Below are positions 20,491 to 38,542 of a stretch of DNA of 64,000 bases, one piece after another (position 1 is the stretch's first letter; each line of letters starts with the position of its first letter). A program made the translations under genes and the position numbers. Under the pieces are notes generated by a model, which saw nothing but the letters and a program-made list of their open reading frames with translations, ran no database searches and was not told where the DNA came from. The stretch is from sequence record OL631484.1; one strand, given 5' to 3'. Source of the DNA: Escherichia phage ECML-606-1.

Positions 20491-23271
20491 TTACCTCGTT
20501 GCGAAGCTGCGCGGTTGGATAAAGCTGGAGCTCACTGGCAGCTGTTCGGTTTTAATAACCTGCCCCGACGAATCTTTATGCTGTACCTCCAGCGGAGCCG
20601 CCTTAATATCAATCCGTCCACCAGTCTGAGGCATCGTTTTCGGGTCGATGTTGTTCAGGTCTTTCAGCTTATCTTCCCACGCATAGACGCCCGGCGCATA
20701 GTTCCGGTTTTCAGATGTGTAACGCCCGGCCCCGGTACCGCCGTTGTAACGGCTCAGGGCTTCATATTCGTTACCACCAGCAGCATCCAGATCGTCGCGG
20801 AGGTGCGCAGCACCAGCCATGATATTCCCGCGTTGGGTGTAGATATCGTACTGGCGCATATATTTGGCGTTCCACTTCGGTACCAGCTGAGCAGCACCGA
20901 TAGCGCCAGCGCGGCTGACCGCTTTGTTACTGAAACGGGATTCCTGCGCGATCAGTCCACGTAACAGGCTTGGGCGGATGTTGTACTTCTTCGCCGCGTC
21001 CTGAATGTCCTTTTCCATGCTTTTCGCGCGCGCAGCCATATCGCCCGGCACGTTCTCCGGCAGACTGGCTTTCGCGTTTTCGATCAGCGCAGCCGGAGAA
21101 TCGCCCAGCGTTGAGGTGTCCATGGCCCCGGTTTCCGCTGACGAGCTATACCCACCTGCGAGCTCATCAACACGGCGATTCATCGCAGCAGTTTCAATAT
21201 CGCGCTGACGGTTGTTTGCGGCCTGCTTATCAATGATTGCTTTACGCTTGGCGTTCGCCTCAGCGTCATTCCCTGTCACCATGTTCAGCTTGGCTTGCAA
21301 TTCGCGGTTGGCATTGTCGAAACGCATATCAATGCGACGTTTGCCCTGCGATTTCTCGCGGTCGATATAGTTCTGCCTCAGGCTGGCTTCATCGCCCACA
21401 CCAGCCATCTTGACCAGTGCCATGCGCATTATATCCAGCGACGGCAGAGCGCGATCTGCAAAGCGGGTCATGGTGTTGTCCAGCTTCGCTACGTTATCGC
21501 GGATCTGGGATCCTTCTGTTTTGGTGCCACCGTGAACGCTGACCAGCTCAGCCATTACATCTTTCAGCTTCTCGGTATCGCTGCCCTTATAGGCACCCAT
21601 CAGGCGCTGACGCTCGGCATCGGTCAGGTCTTTTCGGCCCAGATAATCCTTCGCCATGCTGCCCAGACCAGTACCACCCCCCTCAATGATCCCCATCTGA
21701 GCCATCAGCTGCGGGGTCACGTTCAGGCCCAGACGCTTGGCGCGAGAGTCCGCCCCGGTTAACTGCGTCATAGAGGTATTGGAGAGGGTCATGGCCTCAT
21801 TAAGCCCGGTGCCCATATGGTTAGCCAGCGCCATGTAATACTCAGGTGTACCCTGCCCATACTGGCGAGCCATCTGGCGTTTAACCAGATCAAACATGGT
21901 TGTGCTGCCCTGCGGGCCAGCGCCAAACGCGCGACCGTATGGCGTGTTAGCGCCAAAGGCGGAGCTCAGCGTGCCAAACATCCCAGTTTCCTGAAACGCT
22001 CGCGTCTGGTACGGGTTCAGGCCCGCTGCCATACCCATTCTGGCGGTGAAGGCTTGGGACGCTTCACCCATGTTGCCGCCGCGTGACAGGGACGCGTTGA
22101 CGCGGCTCAGGAGCGATGCAGCGCCCTGCACATCCATTCCCGGCAGGCCAGTTTGCATCAGGCCAGCCAGAGCGCCGCCATAGCCAGCGACGTTTGGCCC
22201 GGTCAGGCTTTGCCGTGCTGCCGTGGTGGCGAAGTTGGTGATCGCCTCCATGGCTTCATTGGCCTGCCCGAAAGCGCCGGATTTACCGATGGCCTCACCG
22301 ATAAGCGCACCCATGCGGCGAGTGTCCTGATCGGAGCGCCCGATATTAGCACCGCGTAGCCGCGCCATGCTTCCAGCTACGCTATTCGGATCCAGACCAA
22401 AGGTACGCGCCATGCCCCCGGCAGTGAGCAGCCCGGTCATCGGGTTCTCACCCGGTCGCAGGTTCGCGCGGGAATAGCTTGACGCCATTGCAATAGCGTC
22501 GGAGGTCTTCATGCCCAGCGTATCAGCCAGACCGCCTGCGCCACCAATGGAGTTTTTCAGCACAGCATACGAGGCAACGCCCCCGACCTGACGATACAGT
22601 TTATCGAGGCCAATGGCGTTATCCTGCGCCTGCGCGACCTTATCCGCGATAGCACCGATGATCTTACCCACGCCCAGCGCAGCCAGACCGCCCACAAGCC
22701 CCATCAGGCCAGCTCCAGCACCAGCCGATAACCCGGTGCTCAGAGCACTGGAAAATACACCACCGACCGGGCCCGTTGCTCGCAGCCCGGACTGCATGAT
22801 ATTAAGCCCATGAGCGCCCCAGCCTTGACGCCAGTTGAATCCACCACCGCTTCCACCACTTCCCGGAGGCAGCGCTGGAGGCGGCGTCGGAGGTGTTGGG
22901 CGCGGTGGCTTCGGCTTTGGGTTATCGTCAAAATCCACGCCAAGAAATTGCAGCATAGACTGCATTTTCTTGATGCGTTCAGCCTGATCGCCATACATCT
23001 TTTTCCAGTCAGCCATGAGCGGGTTAGTCGATCCTTGGCCCGTTTTACCCATAGTTGTTCTGAGCTCAGTCTGTACTTTAAGCAGCTTCTGCATCTGCTT
23101 GATGAAGGCGTCCAAATCCTCTTTCGATTTGACGTTAATCGGCTCAAACTTCTGGTTGTTGGCCTGACCGACCTGCGACGCGAGGATGCGGATCTGGTCA
23201 TTAACCATCTGGATCTGCTGTTTCAGGTCTGCCGCATCGAACTGGGCACTAACCGGAATTTTAATTGCCAT
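20491..23271 (-). CDS. tail tape measure protein with lytic transglycosylase domain
   Basis: 926 aa, long coiled-coil N-terminal part, Gly/Ala-rich TM-like middle, SLT-like motif (AQESRFSNKAVSRAGAIGAAQL) near the C-terminus; follows overlapping chaperone ORFs. Confidence 0.75.
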   Translation of the reverse strand: MAIKIPVSAQFDAADLKQQIQMVNDQIRILASQVGQANNQKFEPINVKSKEDLDAFIKQMQKLLKVQTELRTTMGKTGQGSTNPLMADWKKMYGDQAERIKKMQSMLQFLGVDFDDNPKPKPPRPTPPTPPPALPPGSGGSGGGFNWRQGWGAHGLNIMQSGLRATGPVGGVFSSALSTGLSAGAGAGLMGLVGGLAALGVGKIIGAIADKVAQAQDNAIGLDKLYRQVGGVASYAVLKNSIGGAGGLADTLGMKTSDAIAMASSYSRANLRPGENPMTGLLTAGGMARTFGLDPNSVAGSMARLRGANIGRSDQDTRRMGALIGEAIGKSGAFGQANEAMEAITNFATTAARQSLTGPNVAGYGGALAGLMQTGLPGMDVQGAASLLSRVNASLSRGGNMGEASQAFTARMGMAAGLNPYQTRAFQETGMFGTLSSAFGANTPYGRAFGAGPQGSTTMFDLVKRQMARQYGQGTPEYYMALANHMGTGLNEAMTLSNTSMTQLTGADSRAKRLGLNVTPQLMAQMGIIEGGGTGLGSMAKDYLGRKDLTDAERQRLMGAYKGSDTEKLKDVMAELVSVHGGTKTEGSQIRDNVAKLDNTMTRFADRALPSLDIMRMALVKMAGVGDEASLRQNYIDREKSQGKRRIDMRFDNANRELQAKLNMVTGNDAEANAKRKAIIDKQAANNRQRDIETAAMNRRVDELAGGYSSSAETGAMDTSTLGDSPAALIENAKASLPENVPGDMAARAKSMEKDIQDAAKKYNIRPSLLRGLIAQESRFSNKAVSRAGAIGAAQLVPKWNAKYMRQYDIYTQRGNIMAGAAHLRDDLDAAGGNEYEALSRYNGGTGAGRYTSENRNYAPGVYAWEDKLKDLNNIDPKTMPQTGGRIDIKAAPLEVQHKDSSGQVIKTEQLPVSSSFIQPRSFATR

Positions 23272-23605
23272 CTACGTCTTCCCAGTCGTTAACTTCGGTT
23301 ATGTCGGTTTCGCTACCTGCTGGCGTTTGCTCCCCGGATTCTGCTTCCTCTGCCCACTGCTGCATGATCGCAGTAGCATCAAAGGATTCATCCTCGACGA
23401 CATCCATCATCTTCGGATTATCCTGATACGTGTGGGCCCAGTATTCAGTCAGCCGTTCCTCAAACGTTGTCTCCATGTACAGGGGGCTGTTCGGGGGCAG
23501 GCGGAATGTCCGGCGATACCACAGATCCACCGTGTTCACCATTTTCCGCGCTGTTTTCTTCGCCCGGTGTTCTAGGTTTTCTGCGAAATGTTTCCTCACG
23601 CTCTC
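23261..23605 (-). CDS. tail assembly chaperone frameshift-extension ORF (GT-like)
   Basis: Open frame overlapping the 3' 140 nt of the upstream chaperone ORF in the +1 (= -2) frame; classical position between tube and tape measure. Confidence 0.45.
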   Translation of the reverse strand, partial: ESVRKHFAENLEHRAKKTARKMVNTVDLWYRRTFRLPPNSPLYMETTFEERLTEYWAHTYQDNPKMMDVVEDESFDATAIMQQWAEEAESGEQTPAGSETDITEVNDWEDVDGN

Positions 23606-23888
23606 TCAGAGCGGCAAACACACGCCCCAGCTTCTGATACGTTTCGTCATCCAGAGGATCCATGTTTTCCATGTCCCAGCCTTCTGGAGCGTCAACTACC
23701 AGCACGCGCAAGGTTGAAAGGTATTCAGCGAGAGTGATCAGCCATGCGGTCGGTTCCACGCCGCCAGCCATTGACGCGTATTCGCGCTGGATCTCCACCT
23801 CAATAGCCATGGTTCGACGCGCCGCACGGAAGCGACCGATATCCGGCACGTCAAAGTAATAGTCATTTGCTTTTGGTTGTCTTGCCAC
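23460..23888 (-). CDS. tail assembly chaperone (G-like)
   Basis: 142-aa acidic protein directly downstream of tail tube and upstream of tape measure. Confidence 0.5.
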   Translation of the reverse strand: MARQPKANDYYFDVPDIGRFRAARRTMAIEVEIQREYASMAGGVEPTAWLITLAEYLSTLRVLVVDAPEGWDMENMDPLDDETYQKLGRVFAALREREETFRRKPRTPGEENSAENGEHGGSVVSPDIPPAPEQPPVHGDNV

Positions 23889-23910
23889 GTTGGAATCCTC
23901 GGAAAGGGAG

Positions 23911-23934
23911 AAAGAAGCCGCCCCGAAGGGCGGC
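23911..23934 (-). terminator. putative intrinsic terminator after tail tube gene
   Basis: GCCGCCC-ttcg-GGGCGGC hairpin followed on minus strand by U-rich tract. Confidence 0.4.
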
Positions 23935-23943
23935 AGGTATCAC

Positions 23944-24366
23944 TTACGCGCCGTCACCGCTCACGTCCAGCGCGTTAAACTGGGCGTTGGAGGTAACGAT
24001 GGCGTGTTTCTGGGTCTCGATGGAACCAGATGCGTAGCTCACGCCAGTGTACTTACGCAGCAGAGCGCCAGTCAGGCCATCATACTGCTCAATGTCGAAT
24101 ACCAGACCTTGCAGCACGGCGTCGCCGTTCTCCGGCACAATGCCCGCAGCTTGCAGCTGGGACTTGTTCAGGAGCATGGCGCTCACGCTCAGCTGGTGAC
24201 GCGCCATAGTCGGCACCCACTCCTGTACGTGAATGTCACCGATACCGGAAGCAGGTTCCGGCGCGTAGTCATCGTTCATAGAAATGTTCTGGATCAGGCC
24301 GATCTGCTTGCCATCAAAGATGACCTTGATCTGGTTGCCTGACCGTACATTGCGGTTCTGCTTCAT
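23944..24366 (-). CDS. tail tube protein
   Basis: 140-aa protein immediately downstream of sheath gene (conserved sheath-tube order). Confidence 0.55.
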   Translation of the reverse strand: MKQNRNVRSGNQIKVIFDGKQIGLIQNISMNDDYAPEPASGIGDIHVQEWVPTMARHQLSVSAMLLNKSQLQAAGIVPENGDAVLQGLVFDIEQYDGLTGALLRKYTGVSYASGSIETQKHAIVTSNAQFNALDVSGDGA

Positions 24367-24376
24367 CGCTTACTCC

Positions 24377-26173
24377 TTAGACGGTCGCGGTGCCGCTGTA
24401 CGGACGAGCGTACATGGTCACGAGGATGTAGTTGTTAGGGACGACCGGGGATGCCTCGTACTGAATACGCATTACATCGCCCTCAACAGTCCCGGTAATG
24501 TTGCGGAATGCCGGGCTGTTTTCGTCACCCGCCAGCACTGCCGGGCCCATTGGTTCTGGCTTAGCCAGCTCAGTCAGCTGACCTTTAACAGTGCTCAGTG
24601 CCTGAGACAGCAGGATCGGGGACTGCTTGGAGCCGCGCAGCTGATCCACCGCCTGACGCACGTTACGCTGTGTGAAGTCGATAGCCACGCCGCAGGACTG
24701 CTCGCGTTTGTTGAATTTGCTATCAACCAGCCAGGTCGAAATGGACTGCGTGATTTTGTAGCCAGTATCGGTGTTCTCGATAGGCATCACGCCGCCAAGG
24801 ATCAGCTCGTCGGTCTCGGTCGGGTTGTCCAGATCGCGCTCCAGCCCGTTCACGCTGATCACCTTGTTGGTGAGCGGAGTGCCCGGATTCACGCCACCAA
24901 ACGCGGCGGCCACCAGTGCTGCGGTCATGTACGCCGGGCGCAGCGTCAGCACGCCAGTGTCGTCATACGCGTAGTGCCCGATGTGAACCAGAGAAACGCG
25001 GTCGCTGTTCAGTACCTTGGCGCGGCGAATTGCTTCGTCGTTGGAGGTGCTGATCGGCGTGCCGACGATAGCGCGGCGCTCTTTGTAGCGGTTTGAGTTG
25101 AACTCAACATGCGCCTTAACGAAACCATGTACGGCTTCATCACCGGAGCACGCTGCCACCCACTGCACGTTGCGCTCTTTCGCCAGCAGATCCAGAGCAT
25201 TGCTCCAGTCAGCAGGCAGCGGAGCCACGACAGGCTGAGAGGTCAGGTATTTGTAATCCTGAATCTGCGGGCCATGCCAGATGGCAATCGCGTTAGCAGC
25301 GTTCAGCTCGAAGTCCAGCCAGTTGCCTACGGCATCCTTAAACCATTTCTGGAAGCTGTAGCCGTTCCAGTAGAAGTCGGCGTCCAGCGTTGGCGTAGCG
25401 GTATCAGTTTTATATGCCTTCTGATCCAGCACGCTCGGAGACAGAGAACGATAACCAGTGCTCAGGAACGTCATTTCGAACGGTTTCGCGCCGGATGCGT
25501 TAGCGGTCACGCTGTTCACGTAATCAGCGATGTCGCCCAGCGTTTTATACTGGGTTAAATCCAGCTCAATCTTCTGGAATACGCCATCGCCGCCCTGCTC
25601 GTCAGTGACGATCTCAAAGACGCCCGGAGCCACCAGAATATGGCAGTCCTTCTCTTTGATTTTGAGGTGTACGCCCGGCGCGTTGATGTCGTTGCCAGTC
25701 ACAGACCATGCAGATGCGCCAGTGCCGCCAGCAACGGTCACGGTGTACAGGCCAGCTTTTGAGCCCTGCTCAATCTTGGCTTTGATGCCCAGATCGGTTT
25801 TGCTGTACGCCTTGCCTTTCAACGTGCCGAAAGCGCCAGTGGCATTCGTCGTCCCTGCGATAATTGGCAGGTCGAGGGTGGCCTGAAACGCTTTGTTTAC
25901 GCGTATAGCGATGACAGTCTGAGGAGAGCCAGTCTGAGAGGACGGGGAGAAGGCTTTCACCACCGCATCGCAGAGCTCGCCACCGACCAGCGCCTGTTTA
26001 GCCGCGTTGGGGGTGCTGAATTTCAGCAGTTTGAATGACTCACCACCATCAGCCTGACCGATGTAGGCAACAACGTTCGTTACCGACAGGTTCTGGTTCA
26101 GCATGGCGTCATCGTTCACTGCGGATGCAGTGGTAGGCGTCGTCAGCAGTTGACCATTAAAAAATACGCTCAT
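24377..26173 (-). CDS. contractile tail sheath protein
   Basis: 598 aa, size and position (upstream of tube, chaperones, tape measure) typical of myovirus sheath. Confidence 0.7.
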   Translation of the reverse strand: MSVFFNGQLLTTPTTASAVNDDAMLNQNLSVTNVVAYIGQADGGESFKLLKFSTPNAAKQALVGGELCDAVVKAFSPSSQTGSPQTVIAIRVNKAFQATLDLPIIAGTTNATGAFGTLKGKAYSKTDLGIKAKIEQGSKAGLYTVTVAGGTGASAWSVTGNDINAPGVHLKIKEKDCHILVAPGVFEIVTDEQGGDGVFQKIELDLTQYKTLGDIADYVNSVTANASGAKPFEMTFLSTGYRSLSPSVLDQKAYKTDTATPTLDADFYWNGYSFQKWFKDAVGNWLDFELNAANAIAIWHGPQIQDYKYLTSQPVVAPLPADWSNALDLLAKERNVQWVAACSGDEAVHGFVKAHVEFNSNRYKERRAIVGTPISTSNDEAIRRAKVLNSDRVSLVHIGHYAYDDTGVLTLRPAYMTAALVAAAFGGVNPGTPLTNKVISVNGLERDLDNPTETDELILGGVMPIENTDTGYKITQSISTWLVDSKFNKREQSCGVAIDFTQRNVRQAVDQLRGSKQSPILLSQALSTVKGQLTELAKPEPMGPAVLAGDENSPAFRNITGTVEGDVMRIQYEASPVVPNNYILVTMYARPYSGTATV

Positions 26174-38466: not shown

Positions 38467-38542
38467 GATTCTGTAGCTACAGCGGTAGAGCGGCGCACTG
38501 TTAATGCGCGGGTCGCTGGTTCGAATCCAGCCAGAATCGCCA
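38467..38542 (+). tRNA. tRNA-Asn (anticodon GTT)
   Basis: 76 nt cloverleaf: acceptor GATTCTG/CAGAATC, D-arm with GG, anticodon stem GCGCA/TGCGC with loop CTGTTAA, T-arm GCTGG-TTCGAAT-CCAGC, discriminator G and encoded CCA; close match to enterobacterial tRNA-Asn. Confidence 0.85.

Follow-up and report, generated by a model that had tools for sequence, protein, structure and literature searches.

We found that the tail assembly chaperone genes of Escherichia phage ECML-606-1 are probably read in two ways from a single start, giving a short protein (G) and a longer G-T fusion (GT), and that the fusion is predicted to be made by +1 slippage of the ribosome at a UUU_CGC site; we put the probability of this reading at roughly 0.8. 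The analysis was based on a window of 64,000 nucleotides (nt) of the phage genome (sequence record OL631484.1). All coordinates given here are positions in this window, and the chaperone pair and the tail sheath, tail tube and tape-measure genes are all encoded on its minus strand. A +1 slip on UUU_C would explain an invariant C, an absolute preference for TTT, the position at which conservation crosses from one frame to the other and a relocated AAA_A site, all of which were observed when the locus was compared between related phages.

The first open reading frame (ORF) of the pair, ORF1 (23460-23888), starts with a GTG at 23888, stops with a TGA at 23462-23460 and by standard decoding produces G, which has 142 amino acids (16.0 kDa). 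A second frame begins at 23605, directly behind a TGA at 23608-23606, stays open to 23264 and ends with a TAA at 23263-23261. The first listed start codon in this second frame is a GTG at 23599, which would give 112 amino acids, and the overlap with ORF1 is 140 nt when counted from this GTG and 146 nt for the whole open frame. Because codon starts on the minus strand fall at 2 mod 3 in ORF1 and at 1 mod 3 in the second frame, the second frame lies one base downstream of the first (+1, which is equivalent to -2). The -1 frame is unusable because of its stops at 23598, 23574, 23538 and 23451. An earlier note on this DNA had described the 142-amino acid ORF as overlapped for about 140 nt by a frame in +1 (or -2), and the ORF and frame coordinates agree with this description. 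In ECML-606-1 a TGA in the +1 frame (23606-23608), which lies 17 nt before the TTT of the proposed site, sets an upstream bound for any shift. At the other end, the tape-measure ATG (23271-23269) lies within the last part of the second frame, giving an overlap of 11 nt (ATGGCAATTAA). It should be noted that ribosomes which completed GT would terminate just within the tape-measure gene, making translational coupling possible.

According to the proposed mechanism, most ribosomes would reach the ORF1 stop and release G, while a minority would shift by +1 with UUU (23588-23586) in the P site and CGC (23585-23583) at the empty A site. The peptidyl-tRNA-Phe (anticodon GAA) would leave UUU and re-pair with UUC (23587-23585), a fully Watson-Crick pairing, and decoding would resume at GCA (23584-23582) in the +1 frame and continue to the TAA which overlaps the tape-measure start. 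The predicted GT coding sequence, join(23888..23586, 23584..23264), encodes 208 amino acids (24.2 kDa). Its T part (23261-23584, 107 codons plus the TAA) is proposed to exist only as the C-terminal half of GT, the junction would read ...REETF-AENLEHR..., and EETFAENLEHR would be a diagnostic peptide. The shift may be tuned by the surrounding codons, which in most relatives are TCY in the E site and CGA, CGC or CGU in the A site, and by an upstream AAGGAG tract; downstream RNA structure would play no part. By analogy with gpG/gpGT of phage lambda, G would bind the tape-measure protein and T would recruit the tube protein at a fixed, low ratio of GT to G. As the lambda analogy also implies that chaperones are not expected in the virion, virion proteomics would be likely to miss GT.

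To compare this arrangement across phages, relatives were collected in two ways. The window itself is 99.9% identical to Enterobacter phage phiT5282EW (PQ352032.1, 95.5 kb), and tblastn with ORF1 identified relatives in Yersinia phage fHe-Yen8-01, Bordetella phage PHB04, Pseudomonas phages Dolphis, Jeremy and Touem01 and Aeromonas phage ST4. Extra loci were fetched with an alignment of predicted fusions from 47 viral contigs, 3 contigs from bacterial assemblies and 29 metagenome contigs. The resulting comparison set contained 60 non-identical junctions, which formed 15 clusters at 60% and 33 clusters at 70% identity of G, with G identity reaching as low as 26%. The G part of Morganella phage Mecenats66 was too diverged to be detected, and this phage has the same layout. 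For each locus the frame relation was determined by tblastn with the G and T parts separately.

The T part was found in the +1 frame at 59 of the 60 loci, and in all seven annotated genomes the +1 frame was open past the ORF1 stop up to the tape-measure start. Comparison with homologous phages had been named in the earlier note as a check of the arrangement, and it came out in its favour: because it recurs in 59/60 loci, the +1 relation is more than chance. L061 (positions ~308-380), the only locus whose frame relation differs, lies on a 2-kb metagenome contig and retains TCT TTT CGC and the +1-frame AK..GK, with one further base needed before EFWYR; this is probably due to an indel or an assembly error, or possibly the locus is a pseudogene.

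The shift site was located by a codon-for-codon alignment around the junction of the loci which retain TTT_C. In these loci the +1 frame opens no later than 14 nt before the TTT (the latest being L017-19 and L065), and the earliest ORF1 stop lies 18 nt after it (L052, L053 and L087). These stops confine a homologous site to an interval of ~35 nt, from -14 to +18, inside which the only invariant or near-invariant bases are T-T-T-C-G. In ECML-606-1 the proposed site is ACA_UUU_CGC (23583-23591, the E, P and A sites), with TTTC at 23588-23585, and it falls within the interval 23460-23605 that the earlier note had suggested for a frameshift reporter. TTTC was present in 59/60 loci and was followed by an A-site codon CGH in 58/60 (CGC n = 26, CGA n = 26, CGT n = 6, CGG n = 0; CAG n = 1), the TTT CAG of L050/L086 being the only case of an A-site codon other than CGN. 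The E-site codon was TCC or TCT in 42/60 loci and is ACA in the window.

Conservation of the encoded proteins changes frame at the same place. Frame 0 is conserved through the Phe (100%) and the Arg (96%), after which it drops to background level, with stops appearing from codon +6. In the +1 frame, stops occur as far as codon -6, and conservation sets in at codon +8 with an Ala and a Lys. The crossover of conservation between the two frames therefore falls on the TTT codon.

One metagenomic lineage, consisting of two loci, has lost the site. In L084/L085 (L084 1798-1860), TCC TTT CGA C is replaced by TCC TTC GAC, which destroys it, and the T frame is open only from +19, starting with GTG AAA AGC right behind a +1-frame TGA, with an AAGGAG 5 nt upstream. 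The shift site appears from these sequences to have been relocated 18 nt downstream to AAA_A with the architecture kept. AAA_A would permit a +1 shift there because the P-site tRNA can re-pair perfectly after moving by one base.

These comparisons also bear on the sites which the earlier note had proposed, namely three A-rich strings and CCCCCU. All of them are present in the 146-nt overlap: AGAAAACC at 23582-23575, GAAGAAAAC at 23561-23553, GGAAAAT at 23547-23541 and CCCCCT at 23486-23481. The comparison did not support any of them as the place of the shift. Runs of the CCC_C type would allow +1 re-pairing of tRNA-Pro, but CCCCCU and the other C5 run encode the conserved LPPNxP of T; GAAGAAAAC encodes the conserved Ala-Lys of T, and GGAAAAT is still further downstream. 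A shift at the C runs, at GAAGAAAAC or at GGAAAAT is unlikely since conserved residues of T would be skipped, and in Dolphis, PHB04 and others ORF1 ends long before the downstream strings. AGAAAACC lies in the permitted interval, but it is absent from relatives (fHe-Yen8-01, PHB04) and offers poor re-pairing. We therefore regard a shift in ECML-606-1 at any of these four strings as scarcely credible.

A further alternative is that T is a separate small gene with its own start, for example the ATG at 23542 or the annotated ATG at 23410, and that no fusion is made. The GenBank records of all relatives do contain a separate ORF of ~45-60 amino acids before the tape-measure gene, and the window has a T-frame ATG at +46, a position at which about one fifth of the loci have an ATG. 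However, the annotated ORFs begin downstream of FWYR, LPPNDP and EYWA, and the +46 ATG is preceded by the conserved Ala-Lys of codons +8/+9. The residue at +46 is usually Leu or Arg, so that Met there is merely a variant residue. No T-frame start codon is conserved, and in five loci (L016, L024, L046, L048 and L050) ATG, GTG and TTG are all absent ahead of the conserved core. In 59/59 loci which retain TTT_C, the open T frame extends upstream past the TTT, and the chaperone profile described below is collinear over G and T. An independently started T gene is thus highly improbable. The conserved motifs of T across the loci are AK..G(R/K)..T..FW(Y/F)R..Y.L...DP..L..T.E....(E/D)YWA...(E/D)D.DFD...DWE, and those in the seven annotated genomes are T(V/I)(D/E)(L/F)W(Y/F)R, LPPNDP, EYWA, (E/D)D.DFD and DWE. 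The C-terminus of the T part (~23290-23264) and of its relatives was seen to be acidic-aromatic, with the conserved pattern (D/E)(D/E)W(E)(D/E/T)(L/I/V), which could be a contact with the tube protein or another partner.

We also examined whether the codons of the site are constrained beyond the amino acids which they encode. Other conserved positions in the same 57 coding sequences, which share their phylogeny, were used as controls for codon choice. Taking related loci as independent, so that the p values overstate significance, we found the following: the junction Phe (P site) was TTT in 57 sequences and TTC in none, against 85 TTT and 124 TTC at four other conserved Phe positions (p = 5e-19); the preceding Ser (E site) was TCC or TCT in 39/44 against 104/351 (30%) elsewhere (p = 3e-14); in the following Arg (A site), CGA was enriched (26/58 against 24/303 in the control, p = 8e-11) and CGG was depleted (0/58 against 53/303, p = 6e-5); and Glu98, three codons upstream, was GAG in 47 and GAA in 6, against 108 and 101 at other conserved Glu positions (p = 3e-7). 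A comparison with bulk codon usage points in the same direction. At the level of sequence, the contrast between the site codons and the matched positions is unambiguous, and the protein sequence does not account for the codon choice at the site.

The frame geometry does not separate a +1 shift from a -2 ribosomal shift at or near the same place, which would produce ...ETFR-AENLEHR... and a fusion of 209 amino acids with one extra residue, for which EETFR plus AENLEHR would be diagnostic. There is precedent for this in phage Mu, which is also contractile-tailed and uses a -2 shift of ~2.2% for gpGT (Xu et al. 2004 via PMC3498833, PMC5009743). However, inspection of the conserved bases shows that re-pairing two bases upstream is mismatched: a -2 move from UUU would place tRNA-Phe onto CYU (CAU in the window), and a -2 move from CGH would place tRNA-Arg onto UUC, both of which are poor. 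The bases at -2 and -1 vary across the loci, whereas an invariant C at +3 and a TTT which is never TTC are what +1 re-pairing on UUC requires. The relocated AAA_A site of L084 fits a +1 shift as well, and in influenza, which has the identical motif, only the +1 peptide was found (PMC3498833). A -2 shift is accordingly improbable, and +1 slippage would be the direction which the conserved bases favour.

A change of frame might also arise in the transcript, by RNA polymerase adding or omitting a base. Known sites of transcriptional slippage are long homopolymer runs of ~7 or more A/T. The conserved run at this junction is only T3 (T4 in some loci) and is followed by an invariant CG, and the constraint on E-site and A-site codons is a translational signature. 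Despite being a known alternative in bacteria and some viruses (PMC5009743), transcriptional slippage seems extremely improbable here, and the shift is most probably made by the ribosome.

Upstream of the site a purine tract resembling a Shine-Dalgarno (SD) sequence was found in most loci: the hexamer at -12 to -7 is AAGGAG in 33/60 and CAGGAG in 7/60, made up of an AAG or CAG codon and the GAG of Glu98. Its counterpart in the window is GAGGAA (23592-23597), and the (A/C)AGGAG of the relatives lies 6 nt upstream of the TTT. This SD-like tract is a candidate stimulator of the shift; in favour of such a role are the synonymous constraint and the recurrence of the tract at the relocated AAA_A site. 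Downstream stimulatory RNA structure was rejected, as the 70 nt past the site shared no fold in 45 loci (mean z of -0.24), and there was no Rfam match within 23000-24100. The only tRNA gene in the 64-kb window is a tRNA-Asn (GTT) on the plus strand (38467-38542), and thus the window contains no phage tRNA likely to alter decoding at the site.

Together with the overstated p values, several points weigh against slippage at UUU_CGC as we have described it. The GT fusion is a prediction from sequence in every member of this phage group. Between the SD-like tract and the P-site codon there are 5-6 nt, as opposed to 3 nt in prfB; the tract also codes for a conserved Lys-Glu, and Mecenats66 lacks it. 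In the window, the E-site codon is ACA where most relatives have TCY, and the purine tract is only GAGGAA. The genes of these phages use CGC commonly, so that the classical explanation by a "hungry" A-site codon is weak. Finally, the preference for CGH over CGG could reflect the first residue of the +1 frame, which would then be Ala, Asp, Glu or Val and not Gly.

The products of the pair were compared to known protein families and structures. Over residues 17-111, ORF1 alone matched phrog_25000, a profile of 230 positions annotated as "tail assembly chaperone", with E = 3.9e-5. The predicted fusion matched the same profile over residues 17-168, spanning the junction, with E = 2.9e-9, which is 10^4-fold better than ORF1. 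All 22 of 22 diverse predicted fusions matched it, the best with E = 3.3e-15. As the match spans the junction, the members of phrog_25000 would be collinear with G plus T as a single polypeptide, giving independent support for the fusion. An AlphaFold2 model of ORF1 had a predicted local distance difference test (pLDDT) score of ~75-85 for residues 1-104 and <50 afterwards, and its ordered part comprised a beta-hairpin, two helices, a strand and a long helix at 81-102. Residues 1-101 form the conserved domain, and residues 102-142 are non-conserved and predicted to be disordered, which is consistent with the 0-frame tail of ORF1 being a dispensable read-out. When solved and predicted viral structures were searched by fold and by sequence, no significant link to known chaperones emerged, and ORF1 had no Pfam match.

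Synteny, the PHROG profile and the recoding pattern, as opposed to structure, support the assignment of ORF1 and T as a tail assembly chaperone pair of the G/GT type. The pair lies between the tube and tape-measure genes, T is without a conserved start of its own, and the overlap contains a conserved shift-prone sequence. The earlier note had likewise proposed a G/GT-type pair with its extension in the +1 (or -2) frame, which is supported by the 59/60 loci, the conservation of T upstream of possible starts and the match of phrog_25000 across the junction.

In lambda and most phages the longer chaperone product arises by a -1 shift on an X_XXY_YYZ heptamer. The present locus is similar to lambda gpG/gpGT (Levin 1993; Xu, Hendrix & Duda 2004; reviewed in PMC5009743) in that overlapping ORFs lie between the tube and tape-measure genes and in that the arrangement is kept despite low protein similarity. 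It differs from lambda in that the -1 frame is closed, the +1 shift would occur on a tetranucleotide and only a PHROG profile ties ORF1 to the chaperones. Tail assembly genes of different phages are known to use -1, -2 or +1 shifts (Atkins et al. 2016, PMC5009743). With Mu our locus shares the contractile tail and a T in the +1/-2 frame, but here the conserved bases bar -2 re-pairing and fit +1 exactly, and the predicted product has no extra residue.

Forward shifts at the same gene position have been described in other phages: the archaeal myovirus HSTV-2 probably has a +1 tail chaperone shift (PMC5009743), and 350 forward cases are annotated in the actinophages of SEA-PHAGES (PMC10885494); the PRFect study, which counted them, states that no general motif for forward shifts has been identified (PMC10885494). 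As the gene position and direction are the same, +1 shifting here is not new as a class. However, those forward shifts are mostly guesses by annotators, whereas in the present case 60 loci and the constraint on E, P and A codons pin the shift to one codon, and the hosts are Proteobacteria, unlike those of HSTV-2 and the SEA-PHAGES cases.

The closest resemblance to the motif itself was found in a eukaryotic virus. In influenza A PA-X, +1 slippage in the P site at the UUU_C of UCC_UUU_CGU was demonstrated by mass spectrometry; the E-site UCC was stimulatory and not essential, CGN was the preferred A-site codon and shifting fell to half when CGU was replaced by CGG (PMC3498833). UUU_CGN sites have also been proposed for amalgaviruses, fijiviruses and bee paralysis-like viruses (PMC3498833), and Firth et al. 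2012 predicted a class of UUU_CGN-type sites, leaving open the reason for the CGN preference. The signal in our loci is alike in having UCY in the E site (42/60), UUU_C (59/60), CGN (58/60), disfavoured CGG, no downstream structure and an expected low efficiency. In the window UUU_C and CGN are both present, and the E site is ACA and not UCY, although UCY is found in most relatives. The PA-X system differs in belonging to RNA viruses and eukaryotic ribosomes; here a double-stranded DNA phage and bacterial ribosomes are involved, and most members have an upstream SD-like tract. This tract recalls prfB, which encodes release factor 2 of E. coli and in which a +1 shift takes place at CUU_UGA behind an SD-like AGGGGG. 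In contrast to prfB, the A-site codon here is a sense Arg codon (CGC in the window), the spacer is longer at 5-6 nt, the tract is weak in the window and the purpose would be to hold two structural-assembly proteins at a fixed ratio.

In the searchable open-access literature, UUU_CGN and UCC_UUU_CGU sites were found only for eukaryotic viruses and genes, UUU_C in connection with phage tail frameshifting led only to two general papers, and open-access papers naming these phages contained no mention of a frameshift or a chaperone. A UUU_CGH-type motif in a phage therefore appears to be undescribed. We suggest, tentatively, that UCY_UUU_CGH may work on bacterial ribosomes too and that a clade of 85-100-kb proteobacterial myoviruses may set its chaperone ratio by it, though we rate this as slightly less than an even chance. 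If true, the signal would be a universal property of the ribosome with tRNA-Phe(GAA) and tRNA-Arg(ICG) that depends neither on RNA structure nor on starvation for rare codons, and these phages would supply the first case of it from prokaryotes, the SD-like tract located 5-6 nt upstream being a bacterial addition. The biological role, setting a chaperone ratio, would be conventional. Internal +1 sites are notoriously hard to recognise, and in this case one has been located to a single codon with a measurable constraint on the E, P and A sites. E. coli-type systems could address why +1 slippage on UUU_C is promoted by an A-site CGN and an E-site UCY, and the relocation to AAA_A behind another AAGGAG offers a natural comparison by which the role of the SD-like element could be judged.

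The current annotation of these phages does not reflect the fusion. No frameshift is annotated in the records of phiT5282EW, fHe-Yen8-01, PHB04, Dolphis, Jeremy, Touem01 or ST4. Both ORF1 and the ORF of 45-60 amino acids which precedes the tape-measure gene are "hypothetical protein" in nearly all annotated relatives; the exception is Touem01, which has a single T-frame ORF of 115 amino acids and in which ORF1 is not annotated. The annotated mini-ORFs start from an internal Met that lies past the best-conserved motifs of T, and that of phiT5282EW (phiT5282EW_00020) corresponds to 23410-23261 of the window, only the last 49 codons of the open frame. When 5.8 billion proteins were searched with the fusion, none of the 45 matches was a single-frame or annotated G-T fusion; all 45 were of the G type only, with 115-142 amino acids, the label "hypothetical", no Pfam domain and a coverage of ≤57%. 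The pair is thus mis-annotated as "hypothetical" plus a truncated mini-ORF in phiT5282EW, fHe-Yen8-01, PHB04, Dolphis, Jeremy, Touem01, ST4, Mecenats66 and dozens of metagenomic relatives. With the predicted 208-amino acid fusion, join(23888..23586, 23584..23264), as the product, the annotation of the whole phage clade would be corrected.

The genes surrounding the pair were identified from their Pfam and PHROG matches, in agreement with the earlier note, which had placed the pair between the tube and tape-measure genes. The tail sheath gene (24377-26173) encodes 598 amino acids and matches PF04984 (E = 5e-8) and phrog_279 "tail sheath" (E = 8e-49), which places the pair in a contractile-tail module. 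Directly upstream of the pair is a tail tube-like gene (23944-24366, 140 amino acids) with a match to phrog_985 (E = 2e-38), homologs of which are annotated as "major tail protein" in phages Dolphis and ST4. The tape-measure candidate (20491-23271) encodes 926 amino acids, with a C-terminal SLT domain (PF01464, E = 4.5e-17, residues 756-852), and its PHROG matches are lytic tail proteins. In relatives this candidate is variously labelled as endolysin, lytic transglycosylase, mltC or internal virion protein. The window and 8 annotated relatives share the order of sheath, tube, ORF1, +1 ORF and the 926-amino acid SLT-domain protein.

Between the tube gene and ORF1 lies a terminator-like hairpin (23917-23934) with 7 G-C pairs, a UUCG loop and a T-rich tail. 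It came from a terminator scan, by whose own count it was not significant. A hairpin with a U-run was found at the matching position in 7/7 annotated relatives, and the sequences of these hairpins are unrelated (L002-L006 and L089 are among the intergenic regions compared). This suggests a conserved partial terminator by which the chaperone and tape-measure genes would be expressed at a lower level than the tube gene.

Homologs of G were also seen on contigs of ~87-102 kb in isolate assemblies of Salmonella enterica, E. coli and Nitrosomonas. The homologs on contigs in isolate assemblies comprise proteins P0006, P0014, P0020-P0025, P0033, P0035, P0037 and P0038 and locus L057. The ~87-102-kb contigs are of the size of a whole phage and may represent carried or pseudolysogenic phages, phage-plasmids or contamination. 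Locus L057 comes from Nitrosomonas sp. Nm132 (an 87.5-kb contig), and its length and coordinates match those of the IMG/VR entry UViG_2675903038.

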